A stretch of 64,000 nt of DNA from Narcine bancroftii (lineage: Eukaryota): positions 204,848,001 through 204,912,000 of the forward strand of contig NC_091475.1 of NCBI RefSeq assembly GCF_036971445.1, written 5' to 3'. Position 1 is the first letter of the stretch. Every line of letters starts with the position of its first letter. Position numbers and translations under genes: made by a program. The notes under the pieces were generated by a model that saw only the letters and a program-made list of their open reading frames with translations, did not search any database and was not told the origin of the DNA. Below, piece after piece: positions 3,214 to 64,000 of this stretch.

Positions 3214-3438
3214 TGTGATGGAACACAGTAATACATGCTTTGTACTGGTTTGCCTTCCCCTGATACTGTACCTCCTCCCCCTCCAGAATTCCTAATAAAG
3301 GCAGAACCACCCAATCTCTTCCCTCTATACTACCTTGGATATGGGCCAACAGCATTTAAGAGAAGGCTGTAAGTTTATAGTGATTAAAGCCTATTAATCT
3401 TGACGTCTGGTCTGTTGGGTATAATTGATAGCACTGCA
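3214..3438 (+). repeat. 5' LTR of element 1
   Basis: TG...CA, 225 bp, homologous to 7197-7422 and to split solo LTR 45003-45641. Confidence 0.9.
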
Positions 3439-6400
3439 ATTTAATCACCATAACTGCATGGCATGGACGAGGCTATTCAAGTGGAGAAGCTGGACACTGA
3501 CCCTAAGGATCCAGGGGTCTCTGTAAAATTCGACCACCTTTATGAAACATGACATTTGGGAAGAAGTCAAGGAGAGAGGCCAGCTGTTTGCACAGGTCGG
3601 CCACCGTGTTTTCCAGATGATCAGGGACTGTGACACTGGCCCAGCCTCTGTAGGGCTCTGAAGAACATAATCTACAGCTGATACTCAGCCGTTGGTAAGC
3701 ACCTGGTGAATCTGTTGACAATTACATTTGGGCCTTGTGGGAGCTGAGTTAAGCTTGTGGCTGCACAGACATTACGACACCTGTCTACCAAGAGGATTTG
3801 ATCAGGGACGCCTGTGCAGCTGGTCTCAGGTCTGACCATATTTGACAAAGGCTCTTGGAGAATGACGATCGAACCCTGCAGGACATGGTCAATCTCGCCA
3901 AGGCACTACAGATGGACCAACTGAATGTGAACACTTACTCCTCCAGAAAAGTGGCTGCCAAATGGGGAGCATGGGTGTCGCCATCTTAGGATATGGGGTC
4001 CCAAACAGCAGCCATTATTGCTGAGCGTCGGAGGTGAGATTACTAAGGCCAGACAAAGCACCCTTGGAGGAACTGTCCTGCTAGAAGTTCGACTTGCTCC
4101 AACTGCAGAAGAAAAGGACACTATGCAAGGATATGTAGATCCAGACCTTCCCCTTGCAGCACTGCATGCAAGCAGCAGCCATCGCCATCTTGGACCGCAT
4201 CATTTCCAGTTCCACTTCTGGTAATGGAGAACATCATGGTGGGGACCTTGGCGTGACAGCTGGGGTTAACGTCACTTCCAGCTTTACTTCCGGCAGCAAC
4301 CGCTTGTGAACCATGGGGGCAGGCATCTTCAGGGTGATCATCTTGGATGTCGCTGACGCATATGTACAGTAGCTGAGAGTCAGGCAACGAACTGACGCTG
4401 ACATCCAATGTCTGGACCAGAGCAGCCCACATTAATTAGCAAGGTTCATTGAGGTAAACGGGTGCATTACTAACTGCTTGTTCAACACGGGAGGCATCAA
4501 CACTTTACACACCTGGGTACTGTACAGCACTGCTCCCTCACAGTGACCACAGTCCAGTGTAAAATCTCATTGGCCTTTAATCCCATTCAACTGAAATAAC
4601 TGAAGTAACGAAAACTGTGGGTGGTACCAAGAATTTTAAATTGTTCGTTATGTCACAACTCTGTGCACCAGGCATGCGGGGGCTGGACTTGCAGTGCCAA
4701 TTTAAAAGTGTTCTAATGGAATATGGCAGGTCCCACCCTCCCTCACGGTCCGTAATAATCGACTTTTAAACCACCTGCCCATCTCCGTAAAATCAGCCCA
4801 TCAGAAACCTGAACACACCCCACCTGCTCACGACCTGCGGTCTGTCCATCTTCCAAGTCCCACCGCCCCCCATTCGAAAATGCCACTCCTGACGGTAAGC
4901 CTAGGGCAACTAAGAGCAGGCGATACAATCCTGGGTACAGAGACTTTATCAAGGTTGACTCCTGGCAGAGGGCATCATAGGACCCAACACAGCCCTTGAA
5001 GAGCACAGACAGTGGTTGTAAAGAGGGGGGAGAAGCACAGGATGGTCATAGACTACGCCAGACCATCAACAAGTTCACCCTCTTGGATGCCTATCCCCTC
5101 CCCCACATAGCCAGCATGGTGAATGAGATTGTCCAATACGGGGTCTTCTCCAGCATTGACCACAAGTTGGCCTATCCCAGCTCCCAATCCGGCCAGACTC
5201 CTTTAGAGTCATGAACGGAGTTTCGGTCTTCCAGAGTGAGATGGACCGAATAATGGATGGCCACCAACTGAAAGCCACATTCCCCTACCTGGACAACGTG
5301 ACTATCTGTGGCCATGAACTGTAGGATCAAGATGCTCTCCTGCGAAAATTCCTCCAGATGGCAAAAGTCCTAAATCTCACATATAACCAGAAGAGTAGAG
5401 CCTCTGGCTCTACTAGAGTGCATGGTTGAGAATGGAGTCATTGGATCCGACCCTGAGCATATGCAGCCCCTGCTCAAGCTCCCACTCCCCCATAACTTCA
5501 AGGCCCTGAAAAGGTTCCTGGGGTTCTTTTCATACTATGCTCAATGCATCCCCAATTATGTGGACAAAACCCACCCCCTGGTAAAAACTACTACCTTTCC
5601 CCTGTCGGCAGAAGCCCTGGTGGCCTTCACTCACATCAAAAGTGGCATTGCCAAGGCAGCGATGCACACCACAGACAAATCCATCTCATTCCAGGAGAGC
5701 AATGCATCCGACTTTGCCCTGGCTGCTACGCTGAACTAGGTGAGCAGGCCGGTGGCATTTTTTCTCACGTACCTTCCAGGGTCCCGAACTCCGACACTCA
5801 GCCATTGAAAAAGAGGCCCAGGCCATAGTGAAAGCTGTGCACCACTGGAGACATTATCTATCCGGCAAACCGTTCACTCAGCTGACTGACCAACTTGTAG
5901 TCGCAATTATGTTTAACAACAAACAGCAAGGAAAAATTAACAACCACAAGATCCTGAGGTGGAGAATTGAACTGTCCACCTACAACTACCAGCCCAGGAA
6001 GATTAACGAGCCTCCCGATGCCCTAACAAGGTACCTGCACCAACGCACAAGCAGATCACCTCCAAGCCCTTCACCGCAGCCTCTGTCACTCCAGGGTCAC
6101 CAAATTCTATTGCTTTGTGAGAGCCCACAACTATACGTACCAGGTGGAGGACACCAGGGAGCTGACCTGCAGCTACCTCGACTGCATGGAGTGCAAGCCG
6201 CATTTCTAGCGGCTGGAGAAAGCTCACCCGCCTCTTTGAATGTCTAAGTATGGAATTCAAGGGCCCTCTCCCCACCACGAACTAGAACATATCCCATTCG
6301 CCATCCACTGGCCAGATAGGACTACGACCACTGTTATTAAGTCCCTACATAAACTCTTCATGCTCTTCAGATACCCGAGTTACATCCACAGTGACCGGGT

Positions 6401-7196
6401 GCCCTCATTCATGAGTGAGGAGTTGCACCAATACCGGATGGCCAAAGGCATAGCTTTGAACAGGACCACCAGCTATAACCCCCAAGGCAATGGCCAGGTA
6501 GAAAGTGAGAATAGCACCATTTAGAGAGCAGTCCTCCTGGCACTCAGGTCAAAAGGGCTGCTTTTCTTTCACTGGCAAGAGATCCTACCTGAGCCGCTCC
6601 ATGCCATTGGGCCCCTTCTCTGTTCAGCAATGAATGTGACCCTGCATGAAAAATTATTCTCCTGCCCCAGAGTCAGCATCGGGGACAATATTACCTGCCT
6701 GGCAGACAACCCCATGACCTATGCTACTCCAGAGACACACCAGAATTCACAAAGCAGACCCTCTGGTCAGGAAAGTCCACCTCCTCATTGCGAATCCTCA
6801 GGATGCATATGTGAAGTACCAGGATGAGTGGAGAGGCACTGTCTCTGCCTGGGACCCGGAATATACAGGAGACCTGCAAATGAGGCACTTGTTGAACTAA
6901 CTACGGTCAACCAGCAACCCCCACTTCCCCACGATTACCAGAGACACAGTCAAGGATCCAACCCCACCATTGGCACCAGCTGTATCGTTCCAACCCCAAC
7001 CCACATCTTCTCCTTCCCCCCTGATCTAGCCCCAACTGATTCTCTTCAGCCATCTGAATCACAGCCCATCACACAGCCAGCACTGCAATGGTCAGTACGG
7101 TGGACAAAATTACCGGACGGACCAAACCTGTAAATAGTCTCTGAATGGACTTTGACGCTTCATCCTGCTGGACGTTGTTTCAAAATAAGGGGTGAA

Positions 7197-7422
7197 TATG
7201 GTGGAACACTGTATTACAGTCATTGTACTGGTGGGCCTATCCCCGATATTGTAACTCCTCCCCCTCCAGAATTCCAAATAAAGGCAATGTCACCCAATTC
7301 CCCTCCCTCAGTACTGCCTTGGAATCAAGCCAACAGCATGAAAGCTATGCCTGTAAGTTTATAGCAATTAAAGCCTATTAATCTCGACTTCTGGTCTGTC
7401 GGCTCTAATTGATAGTGCCACA
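7197..7422 (+). repeat. 3' LTR of element 1
   Basis: Directly follows PPT, ends GATAGTGCCACA, direct repeat of 3214-3438. Confidence 0.9.
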
Positions 7423-7924
7423 TGCTATGTTGAAACAAAACTGATCGGTTCTCTCTGTGTTTCATTTTGATCTGCCTTGGAAGGCAGTGTGATTGCCCAC
7501 TGTTGAGTGAGAGGCAATCAATCTCAGTTTTACCAAACACACAGTTGTGTAATTCATAAACCATATTTATTAACTCGACCATTCTTTGCATTAGTGTATC
7601 TTTTGCTTCTCCACTGGAATTTCACTTCAGGCTGTCAGTGAGGGTTTGCGATGTCACCTTCGGATGGAACAGCAAAGCTGGCATGGGTACATAGGCAGGT
7701 GGATGTTGTTTTTCAGGCCTTGTTCTCTGAACAGTGGCCAACAGCCCTGTTCCTCTGACATCAAACCTGTGAGGTTTAACCTTTTTATAAGCCTGATTCT
7801 GGCCTTCACCTTTAGGAGCATGAATTGACCATTCAGCATGCTGAGCCTGATCTTCCGTTCTACAAGCTCATATCTGATCTCGCGATGTACTCTGATCCAT
7901 TTAACCCATTAGTTGCTCATCACC

Positions 7925-9628
7925 CTTAATTCCCTGGACCCACTGCAATTTTACCATCATCATAATTGCTCCATGGTGGACATAATATCATTGGCTCTGG
8001 ATCCTCTCGAAAACAATTCATACATACGGCGAGTCTTCATAGACTACAGCTCAGCCTTCAATACCATTATTCCCTCACTGTTGATCAAGATGCTCCAATC
8101 CCTGAGTTTTGGCTCCTCCTTCTGCAGCTGGATCCTTGACTTCTTCACTAGAAGACCACAGTCAGTACTGTTACAGGCCCAGAGGACCCCAAAACCCAGC
8201 AGCAATAGAAATTCACCAAGACAAATGGTTACTTAAACAAAAGTCATTTTTAATTTTCTTTAAATATAATAACAGGATCAAACTCTAACTTATTATTATT
8301 AATTTAACTTAACCGCCTTCTAATTATAAATGTGTATGTAATGTGTATATATTCAGAGAAGTTATTTGATTCACAGTCCAATCTCACTTCTCACTCCTCC
8401 AAGTTCACTGGTATCAGGCAATTCATGGACTGTGCTCAGAAATAAAGATTTATGAATTTTCACCCAACTCCAGTACTTAAAGATCATTGGTTACCTCTCC
8501 AGAAGGTTCTTCTTGATTCCAGAGAGAGATTCATTGCTCATTGGATACACACACAAACTGATTCCCTCCAATCAGGCACTTCAGTGTCTTGCCGAAGAAA
8601 CTTGCCCCATCAGGGTTTTCTAAATGATAACCTTCTTCTGCAGGTCACCACAGAGTTCCTTTTCTTTCCCTTATTTCTGGTGAAACACTCTAGCCGGCCA
8701 TTTCCTCTTGTAAGGACCACAAGAGTTTTCAACAGGCTGAACTCAGAACTCACAACCCATCTTCAAAATGGAGTTTCAATAAGCTGCCAGCTTGCCATGA
8801 CTGCAGAAACCAGTTCTCTCTCTCTCTGCTTGCAAAACCACATGATCTCCTTAGAACAGCAAACTGCAACCAGACAGATTGCAGCGCCGGACCCAAACTT
8901 CTGAGCCCGTTCATCTGTTGCTTTGAAAACAATAATTCATTACTCATGTCCAACTAACACCTACTTGTGAAGTATCTTAAGTTCAGCTTCTTCTATTTGC
9001 ACCTGCTTATGAAAACCTCCAGCAAAGCAATTTTTATTGTCCCTACAAAGGCCCTGGGTTCGGACTGTCTGGTTTGAGCAAAGCTCTTGCGTTTTAAATG
9101 AGATCTGTTTTGTGAAGTGTTTGTGTTTGTTTGTGACCTACACTAAATCCCCACAATCTATCTCCTCCAAAAACATATCTATATATAATATTAAATATAA
9201 TATAATCTGCCCCTCCTCATTGACTATTGACATAGGCGCACATCAAGGATGTGTGCTTAGCTCACTGACCTACTCACTATGCAACCATGACTGTGTGGCC
9301 AGGCACAATTCCAATGCTACTGAAAAATTGCAGATGACACCACAGTTGTCGGTAGAATCACAAATGGCAATGATGAAGTGCAGAGGAGGGAGGTAGATCA
9401 GCTCATTGAGTGGAGTCACACCAACAATCTTACAATCAAAGTTAGCAAAATCAAGGAGATGATTGTGGACTTCAGGAGGAAGTCGGGGGGAACACGATCC
9501 AGTCCTCATCGAGGACTCAGTCATGGAGAGGGTCAAGAACTTCAAATTCTTGGGTGTCAACATCTTCAAGAATCTGTCTTGGAGCCTCCATGCCAATGCA
9601 ACCATGAAGAAGGCTCGCCAGTAGCTAG
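7925..9628 (+). mobile_element. Rex1/Babar-like LINE RT fragment interrupted by a solo LTR
   Basis: LDPLQF...YIRRVFIDYSSAFNTIIP..L (7913-8168) resumes after the insertion as GAHQGCVLS.L.YSL..HDCVA and KIKEMIVDFRR. Confidence 0.8.
8169..9200 (-). repeat. ~1 kb solo LTR (family A)
   Basis: Starts TGTTACAGGCCCAGAGGACCCCAAAACCCAGCAGCAATAG; colinear copies at 31574-32629, 43119-44163, partial 41428-41680; cleanly interrupts a LINE. LTR class and strand are inferred from TG..CA ends. Confidence 0.7.
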
Positions 9629-11055
9629 ACTGGCATAGTGTACAAGGAAGGGAAACAAATAGTAGTGGGATGGAACATATGGAGATTAAAGAGGAGGAGA
9701 TATTTGTTCTCTTATAATGAATAAAGGTAGATGTATCCCCTGGGCCTGACATGATATTCCCTTGGACCTTGAGGGAGGCTAGTGTAGAAATTGCAGGTGC
9801 CCTGAAAGAAATATTTAAAACATCCTTATCTGCAGATGAGGTGCCCAAGGATTGGAGGGAAGCTCATGCTTTTCTGTTGTTTAAAAAAGGCTCCAAAAGT
9901 AAACCAGAAAATTAGAGGTTGGCGAGTCTGAAGTCAGTAATGGGTAAGTTATTGGAGGGTGTTCTGAGAGATCAGATATTCAAGTATTTGGACAGCCAAG
10001 GGCTGATTAAAAATAGTCAGCAGGGCTTTGAGCTTGGTAGGTTGTGTTTAACAAATCTGAAAGAGTTTTTTTGATGAAGTTACCAAGAAAGTAGATGAAG
10101 GAAAGGCTATGGATGTTGTCTGTGTGGATATTAGAAAGGCATTCGACAAGATCCCACATGGGAGGTTAGTTCAGATGGTTCAGACACTGAGTATTGTAAA
10201 TTGGGTTTGAAATTGGTAGAAGTTAGAGAGTGGTAGTGGATGGATGCTTCTCAGACTGGAGGCCTGTGATTAGTAGTGTGCCTCAGGGATCGGTGCTGGG
10301 ACCATTGTTGTTTGTTGTCTATATCAATAATCTGGACGATAATGCGGGAAATTGGATCAGCAAATTTGCTGGTGACACTAAGATTGGAGGCGTCGTGGAC
10401 AGCGAGGAAGGCTTTCAAAGCTTACTGAGGGATCTGAACCAACTGGAAAGATGGGACACAATATGGCAGATGGAATTTAATGCAGACAAATGTGAGGTGT
10501 TGCATTTTGGAAGGACAACCAAGGTAGGACATACACAGTAAATGAGGAGTGCAGAGGGGCAAAGGGTTCTGCAAATACAGATGTATACTTCCCTGAAGAT
10601 GGCATCACAGGTAGACAGGGTTGTAAAGAAAGCTTTTGGCATGTTCGTCTTCATAAATCAAAGTAATGAGTACAGGAGTTGGGATGTTAATGATGAGGTT
10701 GTATAAGACATTGGTGAGACCAAATCTGAATTATTGTGTGCAGTTCAGGTTGCATAACTACAGGAAGGTTATCAATCAGATTGAAAGAGTGCAGAGAAGA
10801 TTTACCAGTATGTTGTTGGGTCTTCAGGAGTTGAGTTACAGGGAAAGGTTAAGCAGGTTAGGACTTTATTCCTTGGAGCATAGAAGAATGAGGAGAGATT
10901 GGATAGTGGTTTACCAAAATATGAGGGGTACAGACAGAGTAAATGCGAGTAGGCTCTTTCCACTTAGATTAGATCAATGGGACTTGGTGGCAGAAAATGT
11001 TTGGCATGGACTAGAAGGGCCGAACTGGCTTATTTTTGTGCTGTCATTGTTATAT
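9629..11055 (+). mobile_element. CR1 LINE ORF2 (RT to 3' end), decayed
   Basis: SPGPD.IFP.TL, SVPQGSVLGPLLFVVYINNLD, SKFAGDTKIGG, LYKTLVRPNLNYCVQF, ERVQRRFT. Confidence 0.9.
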
Positions 11056-11129
11056 AGTTGATGTATTTATTGAGTAATCTTTATTTAATTGCAATAATGT
11101 AATTTACTTTTAACCTCTAGCATACGTAT

Positions 11130-20235: not shown

Positions 20236-21194
20236 TTCTCTAAGTTTAAATATAATAGGTAACTCACGAAGGGTTCATCAGTCATTCAGCTATCTCACTG
20301 CATGGGGAAAGAAACTGTTTCTCAGCCTGGTCATCCTGGTTCTGACACTCCTGTAACTCTTTCCTGACAGGAACAGCTGGAAGTTGCTGCGTGCAGGATG
20401 GTAGGTGGCTTCACTTATTACTCCCTACACTCTCTCCTCTCTTTCCACCTCCTCCATCTTTTTTTAAAATTCTGGCATCCACGTATTATTATTTTTCGGA
20501 TACCTGGCGAAGGGCTCAAGCCCAAAACATTGGTTACTTTCCACTTCCTATGGACGCTGTGTAATCGCCTGCATTGTAAGTAAGGTTGACGGTTAAACAG
20601 GAAAGTCTGCAGATGCTGGGATTGCCAAGCGTGTGGGAGACTCTCAGCAGATCGTGCAACATCTATCGGAAGTAAAGGGTCAACAACAGTTTGGATCTGA
20701 TCCGTTCATCAAGGATAAGAATTTCTTTTTCAATTGTCCATTGATAAGAGACAAAATAAGATCAGGAAACATAAGGGTAAGAATTCAGACCGGTGTTTCT
20801 GTGCAGACTCAACTGAGAAAATCACCTTTTGTTTAATCTGCATTGTCAAAGATTAATATTTTAAGATGCACTTCAGAAGAGGAAAGGGAGATAGAGAGAT
20901 AGAAAGGTTAGGTTGGGAAATACGAAGCAAGAGGGGCGGAAAAATTCATGACCAAGAGAGAGTCAAAGATCAGAGAGCAGGACCATGTGCCCAACTCGCT
21001 CGTGCCAACCAAGTCGGCATTCTGGGATGGCCCCATCTGCCTGCATTTGTTCCATCTCCTTTCAACCCATTCTTATCCATAAACCTAACCAAATGTCTTT
21101 TAAATGTCAGAATTGTGCCACTCCCAGATACGGACCACTCTTGGAAATAAAACGTTGCCCCTCAGGTCCTTCCCTTAATTTCTCCCTTCGCACT

Positions 21195-21655
21195 TTAAGT
21201 CTGAGGAGATTTGATACGTCACCAAAGACTCTTGCAAATTTCTTCAGGTCTACCGTGGAGAGCATTCCAACTGGTTACATCGCTGTCTGTTGGGGAGGTG
21301 CCAATGAACAGGACAGGAAAAGACTACAGAGAGTTGTGAACTCAGCCAGCGACGTCACAGGCATCAGTCATCACTCCATAGAGGACACGTACAAGAGGCG
21401 GTGTCTTAAGAAAGGAGCCTCTATCCTCAAGGACCTCTTGACATTGTTACCATCAGGAAGGAGGTACAGGAGCCTGAAGATGAACACCCAGTGGCACAAG
21501 GACAGATTTCTGAATGGAGACTGAACCTCACTAAACCATATTTTCTTGCATTATTGATTTCGATATGAAATGTAACTCCTCGCAATATTTGCACTATCAC
21601 ACTGCTCAAAAGAACAAATTTCGTGACGTGCTCATGACAATAAATTCTGATTCTT
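21195..21655 (+). mobile_element. Rex1/Babar-like LINE 3' end nested in a minus-strand CR1
   Basis: LRRF..SPKTLANFFRSTVESI.TG.I.V.WG...DRKRLQRVV...LLPSGRRYRS; tail ACAATAAATTCTGATTCT. Confidence 0.8.
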
Positions 21656-21706: not shown

Positions 21707-24700
21707 TGAAATGCCAGTTGATGAAGTAGACAAAGACGATGTGGTCAAACAATAATCATGGCTTTTATTCACAGAAACTCATGGTACAATAATGAAAGAC
21801 AATAGATGCACATACAGTTATATCCAAGGGGAGTGTCCTTAACAGAAGAGATAACGCACAGCCAATGTTAGTACAGCAAGGCTCGCCAGAGGGGAGACAG
21901 GCAGCTTGGCAGAGATTCACCACAGTCTCCCCCCAGCAGAAGAAGGGTTAAAATCAAAAGGACAGCTGCTAGGAAAGACTGAAGCAAGCGATACATGGAT
22001 ATTATGTTTGGCTTTGAGATACTCCAACAGCCAAAATACGCCAGTATCTAGCAAGTAATCAAAATATAATGTGATGTTTTATGAATATGTCGGCCTATCA
22101 GGCTGTTTATGAATTCTGGTGCTTCGTCTCAAAACAGGTCGCTCCTTTGCAACCTTGGGAACTGGTACAGGTCCTAGGTCTGTAGTGTGGGAAGGACTGG
22201 CTTCTGGACCCGCTCCAGAATTGCCAGCGTGAGGCAGTGGAGCCTCAGCATGGCCATCTGAAAGCTGACTAGGTCACAAGTTGGGGGGGTGAGTCCAACC
22301 TCTCAGGATTACTCTGAGTAGGGGTGTGGGGAAGGGGAGAACCAGGCGAGGCCAGATCTCTTAGGGGTACAGTGTCAGTACTCCCGTCTGGGAATTTAAC
22401 ATGAGCGTAGTTGGGGTTAGTATGCAGTAGCTGAACTGGTTGGACTAGGGGGTCTGTTTTACGTGCCCGAGCGTGGCTCTTCAGTAGCACGGTTCCAGGC
22501 TCAGATAAACAGGCTGGCCAGTCCATTACAGTTCCTGATTTCCTAGGAAAGGCAAACATACATTCATGAGGTGTTTGATTTGTTGCAGTACACAATAAAG
22601 ACCGAATGGAATGTAGTGCCTCAGGCAGCACCTCCTGCCACCGGGTAACAGGGTAACCATGTGTTTTTAAAGCAAGATTAACAGTCTTCCAGACTATAGC
22701 ATTAGCCCTTTCAACCTGCCATTGCCCTGTGGGTTGTAGCTCGTGGTACGGCTGGTGGCAATCCCATTTTGTAGCAGGGCTCGCCGCAGTTCAACGCTCA
22801 TGAATGCTGAGCCTCTACCGGTATGAATGTAATTGGGAAAACAAAAAATGCTGAAAATTCTGTCGTGACTTAGTGACAGACGCTGACGAGACGACAGGGC
22901 AGGGTATCGCAAAGGGAAACCTGGAATATTCGTCAATTACAGTAAGGAAATATACATTTTTGTTGTTGAAAGGTAACGGCCCTTTAAAATCTAAGCTAAT
23001 ACTCTCCAAAGGTCGGGTTGCCTTGATGAGAGTGGCCTCTGGAGCTTTGAAGTATTACGGTTTGCATTCTGCGCAAACAGGACAGCTTTTAGTCAATTTC
23101 CTGACTTCTTCCAGAGAGTAAGGAAGGTTGTTAGCCCTTATGTAGTGGAAGAATCTCATGACTCCTGGGTGGCACAGTCTGCTATGGATCTCTTTTAGCC
23201 CCTCCAGCTGAGCACCAGCAGCAGATCGTGACAATGTGTCAGAGGGATCGTTTAACCTGCCCGGTCTGTACTGGATCTCATAATTATAAGCTGAGAGTTT
23301 TATTCGCCAGCGTGCCATCTTATCGTTCTTGATTTTACTTTTGTGTTTAGTACTGAACATGTAGGCTACAGATTCCTGATCAGTGACAAGAGTAAATTTT
23401 CTGCCAGCTAGAAAGTGTCTCCAGTAGCGAACAGCTTCAATAATAGCCTGGGCTTCTTTTTCAATGGCAGGATGTTTAAGTTCAGGTCCGCGTAACGTGC
23501 GGGAGAAGAATGCCACAGGTCTGTCCTTTTGATTAAGGGTTCCTGCCAAGGCACAATCTGAGGCATCAGTTTCCACTTGGAATGGAACATCCTCGTCAAT
23601 GGACAAGAGTGCAGCTTTGGCAATATCAGCTTTAATTCTCTCGAAAGCCTTCAAGGCCATTGGAGAGAGAGGAAAAGATTTAGTGTGAAACAGAGGGCGT
23701 GGCTTCGTGGCGTAGTCCCGAACCCATTTGCAGTAGTAGGAAAAGAATCTCATACAGCTTTTAAGGGCTTTTGCTGAGTTTGGGGGTGGTAACTTCTTAA
23801 GGGGGGCCATTCTTTCCGGGTCGGGGCGGATTTCGCCCTTGCGGACAATGTAGCCCAGAATGGGTAGCTCTGTCGCATTGAACACACACTTGCCCTCGTT
23901 AACTGTAAGGTTGACTTCTTTAGCTGTTGCTAAAAATTTCTTTAAGTTGTTGTCGTGATCAGCCTGTGTTTTCCCACAGATAGTGACATTATCTAGATAG
24001 GGGTATGTACCCTGTAACTCATACGTCCTAACAATCTTAACCATTTCCCTCTGAAACACGGACACACCATTAGTGACCCCAAAAGGTACCCTTTTAAACT
24101 AGCATAACCCTCCCTCAGCCTCAAAAGCCGAATAGGGCCATTGCCTTTTCTTAATGGGGATTTGGTGATAAGCTGCTTTGAGGTCGATAGTGGAGAACAC
24201 TTTGTATTGCGTTATCTGATTAATCATTTCATTGATGCTTGGCAGGGGGTAGGCATCCAGGTTAGTGTAACGATTGATTGTCTGGCTGTAATCAATAGCC
24301 AGTCGTCTCTTAGTGTGATTTTTCACGACTACCACTTAGGCCCGCCACGGACTCTTACTAGGTTCAATTACTCCCTCTTTAAGCAATCTCTGGGTCTCAG
24401 CTTTGATAAACTCACGATCCTCTTTGCTGTAAGAACGGTTCTTAGTGGCAATCAGTTGACACTCAGGGGATAAATCACTGCATCTTTAATGTGAACAGAC
24501 CACAGTAACTTGCACGGGGAATGGTAAATGTGGGTAGCGGCCCACCAAAATTTAACACTACACTTTCATCTGAGATTGAATATCTAACCCCAGTAACACA
24601 GGGGCGCAGAGCTCTGGCATAATAAAGAGCCACACATCAGTCAGGCAATGTCCCTGCAAATTTAAAGTAACTTTACAGTTGTCCCGTACAGTTTTTGTAA

Positions 24701-25979
24701 GTTCACTACAAGCCATTGATATCTTTCGGTTCGCTGGATATCTCCGCAAATTTAAGGTTCTGGCAACTCTCTCGTGGATGTAGCTGTCAGTACTCCCCAA
24801 GTCTATTAGACAATCAAGAGTCTCACCATTCACCTTCCCCCTTCATAGTCGACCATTCCAGTCTGTAACATCCCCCAAGCTTTGGAGTCAATTGAGCTAT
24901 CACAGGGGATCTCACCTCGCCGTCACTTGATGTCGATTCAGCCTGCTCGTCTGAAGATTCCCCCTTTTCACAGTTGTCTTCCATTCCTGCATCTCCAGGA
25001 AGCATTTTTTTTGGTGGTTCTCTTCTTCTTCTTATCAGTGGGAGTATTTTTCGCCTTACGCGCTTTAGCGAAGTGGCCGAGTTTCCCACAATAGCTGCAG
25101 ATAGCAATCGAGCCGGGCACTTCTGTCTTGGGTGCCAGCTCTTATCACAGAAGTAGCATTTTCAAGAGTTCGCCCTTTTCTTTCCTTCGGGATTCCAGGA
25201 CTCCTGGATGTTTCCTTTTCGGTTTCTAGCATTTCACTGGACCGCATGGCACTTCTCAGTGTTTTGGCTAGAGTGACTGCCCGGTCGTAGGTTAATGGCT
25301 CTGTCTCCAGCATCCGCTGTCGGATGTAACTGGAGTCAATCCCGTTGACTGAAGCATCCAGCTTCAAAGCATTGCGGTGTTGTTGCACCTTGACTGCCCT
25401 GACATCACATTCATTTGCCAGTGAGTCGAGAGCCAGTGCATAGGCAGCATCACTTTCCCCGGGGTTTCTGGCCTCTAGTCAGCAACTGGTGTCGAGCAAG
25501 CACCACATTCTGTGGCGGTGCGTAGTAAGCGGTCAGACGTTCCCGGGCTACAGCCAGAGGGGTAGCTCCTTGCGTTACGGCGAAAGGGTCCTCACCCAGC
25601 AGGTGGCCCAACTGTATCACCTCATCGACCATGTTGTTTCGAGCCATGTAGTAATCGAAACAAGCAATCCAGTGGTTGAAAACTTCTCTGGCCCTTGGGG
25701 CAGACTGGTCGATTATCAGCCGCTCTGGCCTAAGGGCTGCATCCATTTCTGCTAATAAAATTGAAGGGCCAGTTGATGACGTAGACAAAGACGATGTGGT
25801 CAAACAATAATCATGGCTTTTATTAGCATAAACTCATGGTACAATAATAAAAGACAATAAATGCATATACAGTTATATCCAAGGGGAGTGTCCTCAACAG
25901 TAGAGATAATGCACAACTAATATTAGTACTGCAAGGCTCGCCAGAGGGGAGACAGGCAGCTTGGCAGACATTCATCACA
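21707..25979 (-). mobile_element. Full-length Ty3/Gypsy LTR retrotransposon (element 2), best-preserved copy
   Basis: LTRs 25762-25979 and 21707-21924 (218 bp, about 18 mismatches by eye); PPT GGGGGGAGAC; gag ATG 25746 (MDAALRPERL); protease CLIDLGSTDSYI; RT; RNase H; integrase SLDFKGPLP, TVIDEYSRFPFA. Confidence 0.95.
23055..24065 (-). pseudogene. pol: pol fragment of element 2 (RT C-terminus, RNase H, integrase zinc finger)
   Basis: 336 aa ORF: YPYLDNVTICG, VETDASDCALAG, AIEKEAQAI, LVTDQ, HSRLCHPG...CPVCAECKP. Confidence 0.9.
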
Positions 25980-37190: not shown

Positions 37191-37489
37191 AATAAATGTA
37201 TATTTTTTTTAAAATATACTCATTTCTGATCCAAGTACTCCTCCTGGTGCCTTTTAAATGGCGTAATTGCATCAAATGTATGCAAGTCAGAGTATGGGGA
37301 ACTGTAAGGTCATGAACTTCAGTAAAAGAAGGATGAAAGGCAGACCATTATCTTGTTGGAGTAAACCTGCAAATTATTGAACTGCAGAGGGATCTCAATG
37401 TTCTTGTGCATGAATCAATATAAAAGATTAGTTTGGACGACAAACGGTGCATTGCCATTTATTACAAAGGAGATGGCGTGGAGAAATAA

Positions 37490-38062
37490 ATTGGGAGTCA
37501 CTATCTCAGAGGATTTTTTTTCAGGACTCAGCATGAAGAAAGCATGTCAGTGTCTTTACTTCCTCAGGAGTTTGCAGAGGTTTGGTGTGACTCCAGAAAC
37601 CCTGGCAAATTTCAAGAGATTTGTGGTGAAAAGTGTGCTGACTGCCTGCATCGTGGTCTGGTATGGGAATACCAATACCCGTGAGTGTAAAACCCTGCAA
37701 AAGGTAATGGGTACAGCCCAGGACATCGCAGACAAAGCCCTCCCCACCATTGAGAACATTTACAGGGAACGCTGCTGTCAGGAAAGTGGTGTAGGTGCCA
37801 CAAGACTCGCACCACCAGCTTCAGGAACAACTGCTATCCTTCCACCATCAGACTCCTCAACACCAAACTCAGAGACTCATTTAAGGACTCTCACTTTTGC
37901 ACTTTATTGATTTTTTTCTCTCTGTGTTGCACTGTCAGTTTGTTTAGATTTCTTTATTTGTTTATATATACACATATCTCAAGTACAAATTTTGCACTAT
38001 TAATAAATGGTAATTCTGCCTGGGCCAAAGGAAAAATAATCTCAGGATTGTATGTGATGTCA
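37490..38062 (+). mobile_element. Rex1/Babar-like LINE 3' end
   Basis: MKKACQCLYFLRSLQRFGVTPETLANF.RFVVKSVLTACIVVWYGN. Confidence 0.8.
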
Positions 38063-45002: not shown

Positions 45003-45641
45003 TGTGGTGGAACACTGCCTTACAGTCAATGTACTGGTTGTTCCACCCTGATACTGTAACTCCTCCCCCTCCAGAATTCCTAATAAAGGTGGTATCGTTC
45101 AGTCCCCTCCCTCATACAGATACACGATCCTTTATCCGGAACCCTTGGGGGACAGTGTGTTCCAAATTTTGGATTTTTCCAGATTTTGGAAAGCCAGATT
45201 TAAGCCCACCCAAATTATGCTGCCGGTCTCCCCCCACCCACCCTCGCCCGGCTGACTTGCGTTGCCGTTCTCCCCCGCCTTGCCTGCCTGACTCACACTG
45301 CCGTTCTCCACCCCCCTCGCTCACCCGAGTCACACTGCCGATCTCCCCCCCCCCCCCCCGACTCGCGCTGCCAGTCTCTCTCCCTCATCCCCGCCGACTC
45401 GTGCTGCAGGTCTCTCCCCCTTGCCCACCACCCCCCCCCCCCGACTTTTGCTGCCGTCTCTCTCTCTCCCCACTTGCTAGATTTTGGAGCTTTCCAGATT
45501 TTAGATGTCCGGATAAAGGATAGTGTGCAATACTGCCTTGGAATTGGGTCAAGAGCATGTAAGATATGCCTGTAAATTTATAGCGATCAAAGCCTATTAA
45601 TCTTGACTTATAGACCGTAAGGCCTAATTGATACCGCTGCA
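45003..45641 (+). repeat. Solo LTR of the element-1 family, split by a MITE
   Basis: 45003-45116 plus 45531-45641 rebuild the LTR; perfect 5-bp TSD CCCTT. Confidence 0.9.
45117..45530. mobile_element. Tc1/mariner-type MITE with internal minisatellite
   Basis: TIR ACACGATCCTTTATCCGGA / TCCGGATAAAGGATAGTGT, TA duplication, ~35-bp GACTCGCGCTGCCGGTCTCCCC-like tandem units. Confidence 0.85.
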
Positions 45642-51930: not shown

Positions 51931-52199
51931 GGAACTTGTCTTTTAGCCATAGCTGCATTTAATAGTCTAGCTAATAATTTACCTGATTTATCTCCATGTA
52001 TATAAAATTTGCTTTTAGATTTAAACAATTGTCTCTCAATCAGATATGTTAACAATAAATCATATTGTGTTTGGAGTTCTTTCTTTATGGAGATCCATAT
52101 TAGGTTTCCTTGAGTATTCTCTATCAATTTCTTTAATTTTTTATTCAATAATAACAACTCTCCTTTCATACGTTTCCTTAACCCTGCTGAATTAGAAAT

Positions 52200-52500
52200 T
52201 ACTTGTCCTCACAGGTAAGCACTGTAGGGCATTCTTGAATCTCTTGCACTTTCGAATCATCAGGCAAAATACCATGTTGCGTAACTCGATGTCCCAAAAA
52301 TATGAGATCATCATCTCCAAAAACGCATCTACCGGGATTGATCACAAGGCCAAACTCATCGAACTTCTGAAACAATGAAATAAGGTGGCTCCTGAGCTCC
52401 TCTTCATCCACATTTGAGAACCAAAATATCATCGATGTAAACAAACACCAGTGAATAGGTAGTCCATGAATTGCTGGAATGTCTAAGCTGCATTCCACAG
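52200..52500 (-). pseudogene. Isolated Gypsy RT fragment with canonical YIDD (CsRn1-like)
   Basis: FVYIDDIL...HLISLFQKFDEFGLVINPGRCVFG...IFLGHRVT.HGILP. Confidence 0.75.
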
Positions 52501-53089
52501 ACCGAATGGCATTCTCAGAAACTCAAATGTGCTGAAAGGAATAATTACTGCCATCTTTACAGTAATGGCACTGACTAGCCACAACTTGAAAACAAATAAA
52601 GAATTCCCTCATTTCATTCAGCACACCATGAAGTTGACTTTATTTTATTGTTTGCTCGACACAACATTGCATTCTTCAACTCCCCAAACACCATTGAGCC
52701 AAACTCCTCTGACCTTCTCATTGGCTCACTGCCACATGGGTGATCCTGCCCTCACTTTCTTGCTCTGGACGAAAGTAAGTATGCAACCAGGACACCTTCT
52801 CTTCAGTAAATATCAATGTTAGTACCTCACTCGATTCCAAATATACATTCCCTCATTTGTCCTTGGATGGTGCCATTCTCTTGTTTTTTTAATGCAGGTA
52901 TATAAGGCTTTGGGATTCTCGTTAATCCTTTTAATCCTTGTTGTCAAAAAAATTTCATTGCCCCTTTTGGCCTTTCTAATGCTCGAGTTCTTTCCTATAA
53001 TCTTTATATTTCTCCTGGGCCCTGTCTGATTGTAGATTCCTAAACCTCAAACATGCCTCCTTTTCCTTTTCACCAAATTCTGGTCCAAA

Positions 53090-60312: not shown

Positions 60313-60816
60313 TAAGATTCTTGGTGAATCTTTGTCTGCCTTTCAGTTGACTAAGCAAATTTCATGTAAAATTACATCTGTTTTATCACATGACCGTAGA
60401 GGAATCTTGAATGTTGATGAACAGCTACAATGTTCACCATGTTAGCCATGCTTCAGGAACCACCGCTGATGGTCTAATGGTGATTATCCAGGGTTCGTCG
60501 ACTAGTGACATGCAAATTGGCCGCTGTCATTAGAACTCTTGCAAGGCAAGCTCCGACTTTGAGTTAAGCCAGGTTGAGCAGTCATGTGAAACCAGATTAA
60601 AATGCAAATCTTTTTGTAAGTCACTGCTTGGATCCTGAACCAGACCACATGTGAGTCCAGGATTAGAGTAAGAGTGAAAGAGTATGAGAAAGGGTGCAAG
60701 TGAAAGAGGAATGGAGGGGGAGATAGGGAGCTCCCACGGCTCAATTGAAACCTAGAGTAAAATGTGTGATTGGAGTAAAAGCACAATGCTGGAGAAACTG
60801 AGCAGGTCTAACAGAG

Positions 60817-63800
60817 TATGGTAAACCACTTTGTACATTTATCTATCTGGACATGCCCATTGGCTGATTTCACCTGTGGCCCCACCTACTGACACCTGAA
60901 TAAATCTGATTGTTCCACAATGCCTTCCCAGTCCAGGACAGTCGACCAGCATGGAAGTGCCTCTATTCTATTGTGAATAAAAGCCTCTCACTTCTACAGA
61001 ACTTTCAGTCTTTTGGAGTTATGGTGCATCAATTTTATTCACAATAAATTTTGACAATGGAGCAGATCCTGAAGGCAGAGACGTTGAAAATCGACCCTCA
61101 ATCAATTGTAACCTACACCGACCTCAAACTCCGGCTGCGTTGCTTTGAAGCGTTCCCACAGACATCACTTGCCATCGTTCGGTCAGACAGCTGCAGGTAC
61201 TACACTCCTGGGTTGGGGCTCTAGTGTACTCAATGATCAGGGATACTTGCGTTGTACCCAGAGGAGACGAACATTCTGAAACAATGTCTACGTGAGCCAC
61301 TCAAAAACAGTGACCTGGGGAGTTGAGCGCTGTGTACCTCCAGGCTCTATGAACTTTCAGATGGGCCTGTGACTGCAAGGTCTTGTCGGCCGCAGAGAAC
61401 ACTGAAAACCTGATTAGAGACATGTACATCGCAGGCATCAAGTCCAATTACATCCGCCAGACTGCTGGAGCAATGTGAGAACAATTTGCAAAGGGCAGTC
61501 AAACTGGCAGGCCAGAATATGGAAGCCTACTTGGCCGACAACTTGAACTCATTGTGGTTTCCCCAGGCACTGCCAACTTTCGACGCGCCGCGAGCACCTA
61601 ACTCTGCTAACATCATGTTCTGCCAATGGCCCAACCACAGCCGCTGTACTCTGTGAGCACCCAAAATTCTACTTCTGTGGCCTGGACAAGCACTCGAGGA
61701 AATGCTGCCTGGCGAAAAACAGAGTCTGCTACCACTGTTGGAAAAAAGGACATTATACGAAAGTGTGTAAATCCAAGTCACCCTAATCTAGCAACGTCAC
61801 TTGCAGACTGTGGGGGATTCCATCTTGGATGCAGCCATCTCCGAGACCCAGCAGCGTCATGAGCAAGCCTTAAGGGTTGCCATCTTGGATGCCACCATCT
61901 TTGAAACCCAGCATCGCTGCGTGCGAGCCATGGGGACTGTCATCTTGAATGCCACCATCTTGCGATTGAACACACAATCTCTCCGCCGCAACTACAGATA
62001 GCGACCCGATAATGGCCTCCATCATGTTAAATCAAGGTAATCCTCACCAACTCGCCCGATCGATGATGGACATCCAGGTAAACGGCCGCATGACAAGCTG
62101 CCTATTCAATAGTGGGAGCAAAAAGAGCTTTACCATTCCGACAAGGTGCAGTGCTACTCCCTCTCAGTTAGGCCAATGAGTCATAAATTCTCATTGGCCT
62201 CAAAGTCCCATACAGTTGATGTCTGTGGCTACTGCATAATAACTTTGACTGTGAAGGGCACTTTAAACTCCTGGTGCTGTCACAACTATGAGCTGCCATG
62301 TTACTTGGACTGGAATTCCAATGCCACCTTAAAAGTGTGATGATGGAGTATGAGGGACCCCCTTTTCCCCACCCCCTCACTGTCTGTAACCAGCAGTTCT
62401 TAAACCGCCCACTATACTCCACCAACAACTACTCCTCGGACACTTCCCCCACCGTTCCCAGCCAACAACCCGGCCATCGCTCACTGCACACGGCCTGTGG
62501 ACTCACAATTCTAAAGATTACCCCTCCATCACTGTTCACTAACCTCACCCCCAACTGCAAACCCATTGCCACCAAAAGCAGATGGTTCAGTGCCAGGAAC
62601 AGGGATTTATTAGGCCGGACATGGAGCGGCTACTCAACGAGGGGATCATCAAAGCCAATACCAGCCCGTGGAGAGGCCAAGTGATGGTGGTGAGGAATGG
62701 AGAGAAAAACAGAATGAATATTGACTACAGTCAGACCATTAACAGATGTAGACAGCTGGACGCGTACCCTTTTCCCCGCATATCTGATATGGTGAACCAA
62801 AATGCGCAATTTTGGATTTTCTCCTCCATTGACCTTAAGCCAACTTATCACCAGCTTCCCATCTGCATGGAGGACCATCAATACACCGGTTTAAAGGCAA
62901 TTGGCCACCTCTATCATTTCCTGAAGGTTCCCTTCGGCGTCACCAAAGGGGTTTTGGTCTTCCAGCGGTATATGGACCAAATGGTCGACCGATATGAACT
63001 GCAGACCACATTCCCATATCTGGACAGTGTCACCATTTGTGCCACGACCTGCAGGATCATGACGCCAACCTCAAAAAATTCCTCTAGATAGCCAACCTCA
63101 CATATAACAAAGCTAAATGCATATTTCACACAACCCGCCTTGCCATCCTTGGCTGTGTCCTAGAGAACAGAGTCAATGGACCCCAACCCCAATCGCATGC
63201 ACCCGCTTTTGGAACTCCTCCTCCCCCACAGGATCGAACCCTGAAAAGGAACCTGGGCTCCCTTCCCTACAATGTCCAGTGAGTCTCTAATTATGTGAAC
63301 AAGGCCCACTCCCTTGTTAAATCTACCTGGCACCAGAGGCCCGTGCAGCTTTCAGCCACATCAAAGCAGACACTGCCAAGGCTACGATGAACGCTGTGGA
63401 TGAATCCACCCCATTCCAGGTGGAGACCAATGCGTCCAACTTTACCCTGGTGACCACACTTAACTAGGCAGGCAGACTCATCACTTCCTTTTCACACAGC
63501 CTCCAGGCCCTGAAATTCGACACTCCTCTGAGGAGAAGGAGGCCCAAGCTATTGTCGAGTGGTGCAGCACTGGGGACACTACCAAGCTGGCAAACGATCG
63601 ACCATGCTGACTGACCAGTGGGCAGTGGCACTCATGTTCAACAACCAGCAGCATGTAAAATCAAAAATGACAGGATATTGAGGTGGAGAATTGAACTTTC
63701 CACTTACAATCTTGTACTGACCCAGGAAACTCAATGAGCTTCCAGTCACTCTATCCCACTGAATGTGCACCAGTGCACAAATAGACTGATTGCAAACCCT

Positions 63801-64000
63801 CCACAGCAATCTCTGCCACCCTGGAGTCACCACGTTCTTCCATTTTATCAAAGCCCGCAATCGTCCTTACTCCATCGAGGAGATCAGGACAGTGACCAGA
63901 AGCTGCCAGGTCTGCGCAGAATGCAAACCCCATTTCTATCGACCAGACAGAGCGCAACTGATAAAGGCTACTCTCCCTTTGAACACCTGAGCATCAAGTT
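60817..64000 (+). mobile_element. Decayed Ty3/Gypsy LTR retrotransposon (element 3), runs off the window
   Basis: 5' LTR 60817-61031; gag ATG 61057 (MEQILKAETLKIDPQ); CCHC (CYHCWKKGHYTKVC); RT SPWRGQVMVV..DYSQTINR..LDAYPFPRI..FPYLDSVTIC; integrase LCHPG..CQVCAECKP. Confidence 0.92.

Follow-up and report, generated by a model that had tools for sequence, protein, structure and literature searches.

In the textbook view, reverse transcriptases (RTs) rely on three aspartates, and Ty1 and Ty3 mutants without the third are active in the tube and cannot transpose. In Ty3, polymerase activity is lost in D151N and D213N but survives, at reduced processivity, in D214N; each of the three substitutions is lethal in vivo, and the review that describes them concludes that the essential Mg is bound by the first two aspartates only (PMC5371799). 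The equivalent Ty1 mutant, D211N, is active in vitro with its kpol down 223-fold and a preference for Mn. It blocks transposition, which RNase H suppressors restore to 5-10% (PMC2148107).

A natural Asn at this position has been described in BEL/Pao elements. Nematode Cer7-Cer12 carry YVDN; the 2005 paper called their activity undetermined and left in print the question of whether Asn serves in a working retroelement (PMC554778). Atlas, a BEL/Pao element with identical LTRs and an open polyprotein, also has a natural YVDN (PMC9094657). With respect to priming, Tf1 and Tj1 are self-primed, their primer site lying right after the LTR and being complementary to an upstream LTR segment (PMC4600332). 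Chromoviruses usually have one CCHC knuckle and Mag has two (PMC2577118).

Here we describe an animal Ty3/gypsy lineage in which many families that have multiplied recently inherit YLDN. What is new is that this gypsy case is independent and widespread, with sister pairs in which Asn and Asp both occur naturally. Neither YxDN in Ty3/gypsy nor a fold-back primer site of the type described below was found in the literature searched, which did not take in Repbase or subscription journals. Because these two sources lay outside the search, the lineage may already be described; Repbase lists self-primed Gypsy families of the sea anemone Nematostella, which may be this lineage. Within the searched literature, whole-word YxDN-type motifs together with reverse transcriptase occur in BEL/Pao papers only, and the self-priming cases among the papers listed are those of chromoviruses, yeast and plants. 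No YLDN-type string was found in the searched supplement files of PMC6238403, PMC2871265 and PMC8556966, where aligned text may split across lines, and no name for the clade was found in the accessible portions of PMC3601003, PMC6238403, PMC2871265, PMC12440569, PMC2577118, PMC6934838 and PMC12471100.

Three broken Ty3/gypsy elements

The window, a stretch of 64,000 nucleotides from the genome of Narcine bancroftii, holds three LTR retrotransposons, all of them broken (Table 1). They are assigned to Ty3/gypsy because of their domain order and because a natural relative, P0003, matches Ty3 Gag-Pol. In element 2 the order is gag with CCHC knuckles, protease, RT, RNase H and integrase. This order from protease to integrase, the TG...CA LTRs, the target duplications and the polypurine tract are all features of Ty3/gypsy (Metaviridae). 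Stops break each element and frameshifts are present in elements 1 and 3 as well as in the gag part of element 2, whose pol match (tblastn with the natural relative P0010) contains 8 stops. In elements 2 and 3 the frames are matched by both RVT_1 and RT_RNaseH of Pfam, in element 1 by RT_RNaseH; element 1 is an older copy than element 2 and comes from a related family.

Table 1. Features of the three elements in the window
Feature	Position	Strand	Description and basis
Element 1	3216..7415 (about)	+	Belongs to a related family; interrupted by many stops and frameshifts; LTRs 80.6% alike
Element 1 fold-back	3380..3448	+	9 nt between LTR 3380-3388 and leader 3440-3448; of the three fold-backs, the weakest
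Element 1 RT motif C, YLDN	5286..5297	+	Asn codon AAC
Element 2	21707..25979	-	LTRs of 218 bp, 91.7% alike (self-blastn)
Element 2 3' LTR	21707..21924	-	Self-blastn pair; family copies
Element 2 polypurine tract, before 3' LTR	21925..21934	-	Comparison with family copies
Element 2 gag-pol	22323..25746	-	tblastn with natural relative P0010; Pfam
Element 2 RT motif C, YLDN	23988..23999	-	Codons TAT CTA GAT AAT; context YPYLDNVTICG
Element 2 RT motif A Asp (FSTIDL)	24183..24185	-	Frame shared with YLDN; read from sequence
Element 2 leader at primer-binding-site position	25750..25760	-	One base past LTR; 11 nt complementary to own LTR
Element 2 5' LTR	25762..25979	-	218 bp, TG...CA; ends confirmed with family copies
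Element 2 LTR pairing segment	25818..25828	-	Contains AATAAA; 67 nt before LTR end
Element 3	60800..64000	+	Decayed; extends past window edge; left end approximate
Element 3 fold-back	60969..61046	+	14 nt between LTR 60969-60982 (with AATAAA) and leader 61033-61046; folding z -2.8
Element 3 RT motif C, YLDS	63017..63028	+	Ser codon AGT

Exact 5-bp target duplications flank 5 of the 13 two-LTR copies of the element 2 family. No matching duplication was found around the window copy, and its two LTRs differ within the segment that pairs with the leader (see below); this copy is possibly recombinant or converted.

The window contains other traces of retrotransposition. Two pieces at 45005-45114 and 45528-45641, about 410 bp apart, are 79-84% like the LTR of element 1 and probably represent a solo LTR split by an insertion. 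An unrelated gypsy-type RT fragment on the minus strand (52199-52522) has the canonical motif FVYIDDILV at 52439, and YxDD elements of other clades are thus present in this genome. Frames at 7913-8236, 9013-9638, 10227-11061, 20952-21524 and 37365-37910 resemble, by eye, RT fragments of non-LTR retrotransposons. A scan of the window for tRNA genes found none.

Motif C and its alignment with Ty3

When the motif C of each element was read again, the residues, codons and positions (Table 1) were those given by an earlier interpretation made from the DNA alone, referred to below as the sequence-only reading. Alignment of P0003 with Ty3 RT (phmmer) places the YLDN of the former opposite the YLDD of the latter, free of gaps within the motif, and the motif A Asp is kept. 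Ty3 Gag-Pol and Ty3 RT are the best sequence matches among solved structures (E 1.8e-62 and 8.2e-54; PDB 4OL8 and 7Q5B). Among characterised RTs, Ty3 is by far the nearest to P0003, followed by caulimovirus and gammaretrovirus RT. The AlphaFold model of P0003 (pLDDT 70, pTM 0.41) has an RT fold, with Ty3 RT among the top fold matches.

Asn is a family state in the Narcine genome

An exact degenerate pattern of the motif context, applied to the whole genome, yields 4,827 matches in which the residue is Asn, as against 48 for Asp and 56 for Ser; reversed-pattern controls yield 0. The decay of a single copy as the source of Asn is ruled out by these counts. Since Asp and Ser are each one A-to-G step away from Asn and occur in similar numbers, Asp is at the level of random decay in this genome, and so is the Ser seen in element 3. 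Five YLDS matches with identical codons lie within 1.2 Mb of each other (G000:C11:220348808-221558282), probably through segmental duplication of one decayed copy. Within the element 2 family, the 30 best copies of the 150 matches listed all have the AAT codon, in the context YLDN in 28 of them, HLDN in one and YLYN in one.

Evidence for recent movement comes from 18 loci that were chosen by a recurrent YLDN codon string and, having been picked for Asn, speak to the mobility of Asn copies and not to the share of Asn among young copies. The LTR pairs are at least 99% alike at 10 of the 18 (one pair being partly aligned); of the remainder, three pairs are at 92-98%, three loci have no pair and two gave an unrelated repeat. 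Open frames of more than 1,000 amino acids run through the motif at five of the loci, and exact 5-bp target duplications are found at six or more.

The RT of YLDN families is under purifying selection, as indicated by dN/dS ratios (Nei-Gojobori) of 0.035-0.039 in the three comparisons between diverged families that are not saturated. In the remaining comparisons between families the synonymous sites are saturated, and a near-identical pair gave 0.55, which carries no information. The proposal of the sequence-only reading that Asn was already present in the active ancestors, and did not arise by decay, is thus borne out by the genome counts, by the 30 AAT copies and by the young YLDN copies. 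A predominance of YLDD among young members, which it had named as the observation that would speak against it, is not what was found: the young copies read YLDN.

Relatives in other genomes and conservation of the triad

Among named proteins, those of sharks and rays are closest to the window elements, in line with a cartilaginous fish as host; relatives with YxDN also occur in anemones, corals, molluscs, shrimp and tunicates. Of 1,127 long homologues, the 120 best comprise 102 with YxDN, one with YLVN and 17 with YxDD. In a scan of a metagenome collection, the best 80 of 529 loci include 50 with YxDN, 13 with YLDD, seven that are damaged or misaligned and 10 without the motif. At five of these 80, all from one assembly and two of them the same insertion, YxDN lies in a frame of 1,217-1,253 amino acids between LTRs at least 99% alike, inside a long contig. 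Two scans of a viral contig collection found no relative. The named marine hosts with YxDN are sharks, rays, Actinostola, Xenia, Styela, Mytilus and Palaemon, and the named insect and parasitic nematode hosts with YxDD are Ischnura, Cyphomyrmex, Trichuris and Trichinella; this pattern is drawn from few, related named proteins, and many YxDD proteins carry no host name.

The RT-RNase H region was compared in 114 of the 120 homologues, six being too short to include. All 114 retain the motif A Asp, 113 the first Asp of motif C and 112 to 114 the RNase H acids. At the third position, 98 carry Asn and 16 carry Asp, and no other residue occurs. Measured against the D...YxDD triad by which Metaviridae are recognised, the lineage therefore departs at the third residue, and its YxDD members are nested within it.

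Near the active site, the lineage has a motif B of the form PFGVTNGV, and its motif C is followed by I/V-T-I-C-G, with Thr two residues past the Asn or Asp in 112 of the 114 regions. These residues are candidates for a permissive background, and they occur in both states among close relatives. A search for a compensating residue by column association over the 114 regions gave only weak best columns, confounded by kinship.

Two CCHC knuckles are present in the gag of 55 of 63 full-length proteins, and the chromodomain family is absent from the precomputed Pfam lists of the relatives; in both respects the lineage differs from the chromoviruses Tf1 and sushi. Mag also has two CCHC arrays in gag. 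Because this feature is shared with Micropia/Mdg3, it is not diagnostic. Like Mag and MolGy/PolGy, the lineage has marine invertebrate hosts; the trees described below include no named reference (Mag, SURL, Gulliver, CFG1).

Switching between Asp and Asn

A search seeded with a YLDD member returned 120 matches, of which 69 have YxDN, 50 have DD and one is damaged. A second tree (FastTree) was built from 161 RT regions that include distant relatives from a 50%-cluster library. Its outgroup of 57 is entirely Asp, whereas the ingroup of 104 (support 0.94) contains 60 Asp, 43 Asn and one Tyr. The ingroup root is Asp, and parsimony requires 19 changes, as compared to a mean of 33 and a minimum of 25 in 500 shuffles. 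The first tree requires 10 changes (shuffles: mean 15.3, minimum 11). Two mixed Asn/Asp sister pairs are found, with support of 0.97 and 0.98, and both trees show only Asn in the subclade of sharks and rays. That more than one switch between Asp and Asn has taken place is well supported by these trees, the number of switches being approximate because FastTree was applied to short alignments with weak deep nodes. The idea that Asn might be fixed in the clade has to be given up, in view of the YxDD root, the changes scattered among the ingroup proteins and the DD members recovered by the Asp-seeded search.

The lineage shares with BEL/Pao (Belpaoviridae) a natural Asn at the same position, but in the present lineage the state switches back and forth and is also found in vertebrates. 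The lineage is not Belpaoviridae: its gag has two CCHC knuckles and not a triple Cys-His array, and its RT groups with gypsy-type outgroups and matches that of Ty3. Since the element family is different, the Asn probably arose independently of the BEL YVDN, although the tree holds no BEL sequences.

A fold-back at the primer-binding site

No TGG-type tRNA site follows the CA end of the 5' LTR. Instead, the leader begins with one base and then a TTT(T/A)A(A/T)T-like run, complementary to a stretch of that LTR which lies 50-70 nt upstream and includes the poly(A) signal. In the element 2 family, the pairing extends over 15-16 nt in 5 of 13 copies and over 8-10 nt in the rest (0 of 300 shuffles). 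Folding energies are mixed, with z ranging from -0.2 to -4.5 (the L122 stretch is too short to be informative). Across 17 families, the own LTR is in every case the best partner of the leader (median 15 nt versus 6, best foreign pairing 9); since the 14 outside families had been selected for having the helix, only the contrast between own and foreign partners is informative. Judged by this contrast, the fold-back primer site is real, and the unusual priming structure noted by the sequence-only reading is upheld as a family-specific pairing.

Enough upstream DNA was available for 32 of the 80 metagenome loci, many of which share an assembly. Of 27 Asn loci, 23 pair over 11 nt or more and four over less; of four Asp loci, three and one do so, respectively. 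The suspected link between fold-back and Asn is thus not retained: because Asp members have the fold-back too, it is a trait of the lineage and not of the Asn state, with no sign of coupling between the two.

As in Tf1, Tj1 and sushi, the primer site is complementary to an upstream segment of the element's own 5' LTR. Unlike in Tf1 and sushi, the pairing segment overlaps the poly(A) signal. Ty3 differs in that it primes with a tRNA. By analogy with Tf1, the transcript would begin just before the poly(A) signal of the LTR, its first 11-19 nt would pair with the leader directly after the LTR, and the paired transcript start would then be cut to serve as minus-strand primer. The geometry would put the 3' end of this primer beside the LTR end, pointing into U5. 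The case for self-priming is made by pairing and geometry.

A polymerase that probably uses two carboxylates

Most probably two carboxylates are enough for these RTs to work, an isosteric Asn being able to take over the role of the third side chain. Metal binding in catalysis would fall to the two retained aspartates, and the third side chain would contribute shape and hydrogen bonding, as the Ty3 and Ty1 mutants suggest. A drop in rate or processivity, lethal in Ty1 and Ty3, is presumably offset by the background of the lineage. Two considerations weigh against this reading. The repeated return to Asp could mean that Asp makes the better enzyme, and, by analogy, the same change kills the transposition of Ty1 and Ty3 in vivo (PMC2148107, PMC5371799). 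The surprise that the sequence-only reading attached to an Asp-to-Asn change was nevertheless overstated. Ty3 D214N and Ty1 D211N are active in vitro and YVDN is natural in BEL elements, precedents that lower the surprise; the lethality in vivo stands. In this respect the lineage differs from Ty3, whose YLDD enzyme is dead in vivo as D214N, in that Asn is natural here in families that multiply.

A different proposal, which we think rather unlikely, is that Asn is selected for because it makes the polymerase slower or alters its tuning (in metal preference, the handling of pyrophosphate or the balance with RNase H) in a manner suited to self-priming or to the chemistry of marine hosts. Asn arose or was regained many times, within the approximately 19 changes mentioned above, and it dominates large subclades. 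The Ty1 D211N mutant prefers Mn and is suppressed from the RNase H domain (PMC2148107), and the named marine hosts have Asn where the named insect and parasitic nematode hosts have Asp. However, Asp is also regained frequently, the fold-back accompanies Asp at 3 of 4 loci, the host pattern comes from few named, related proteins, and the YVDN of nematode BEL elements is found on land.

It is very improbable that a YxDD enzyme copies the YxDN elements in trans, as non-autonomous passengers, the second possibility that the sequence-only reading had set against itself. YxDD members do exist in the lineage (16 of 114 regions; 50 of 120 in the Asp-seeded search), and 48 Asp copies are found in this genome. 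Yet Asp is no commoner here than Ser (48 versus 56). The 30 Asp copies that were fetched from among the 48 are all decayed, with open frames of 32-413 amino acids through the motif, no two of them are more than 91% alike, and no young YxDD helper is among them. A passenger would also have no need of the strong purifying selection seen on the RT of Asn families or of their other, conserved catalytic residues.

Equally improbable is an enzyme that is encoded with Asn and works with Asp, through A-to-I editing of AAY or through deamidation; AAY to GAY is a single A-to-G change and the position accepts only Asn and Asp, but edited genomic RNA would enter new copies, whereas Asp copies make up 1% and are no commoner than Ser, and the Asn is followed in the RT alignment by Ile or Val, a context of slow deamidation.

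The reading with two working carboxylates can be extended to the lineage as a whole, and in this wider form we offer it tentatively, as a possibility somewhat short of an even chance. A widespread, active animal lineage would have rebuilt its RT so that the third carboxylate is dispensable in vivo and Asp and Asn switch freely, and a single segment around the poly(A) signal would serve as transcript start, end signal and primer.

With its thousands of copies, young insertions and natural Asn/Asp sisters, the lineage makes it possible to study, in enzymes that need not be engineered, what the third carboxylate does and which changes make up for losing it. If YxDN were annotated as "dead", a major lineage of retrotransposons in cartilaginous fish and marine invertebrates would be overlooked. 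The fold-back, for its part, makes it likely that priming independent of a tRNA is not confined to the chromoviruses.

The gag start codon often lies only 15-20 nt past the 5' LTR (15 nt in element 2), at the edge of the pairing helix. Because of this position, the fold-back could also gate translation.
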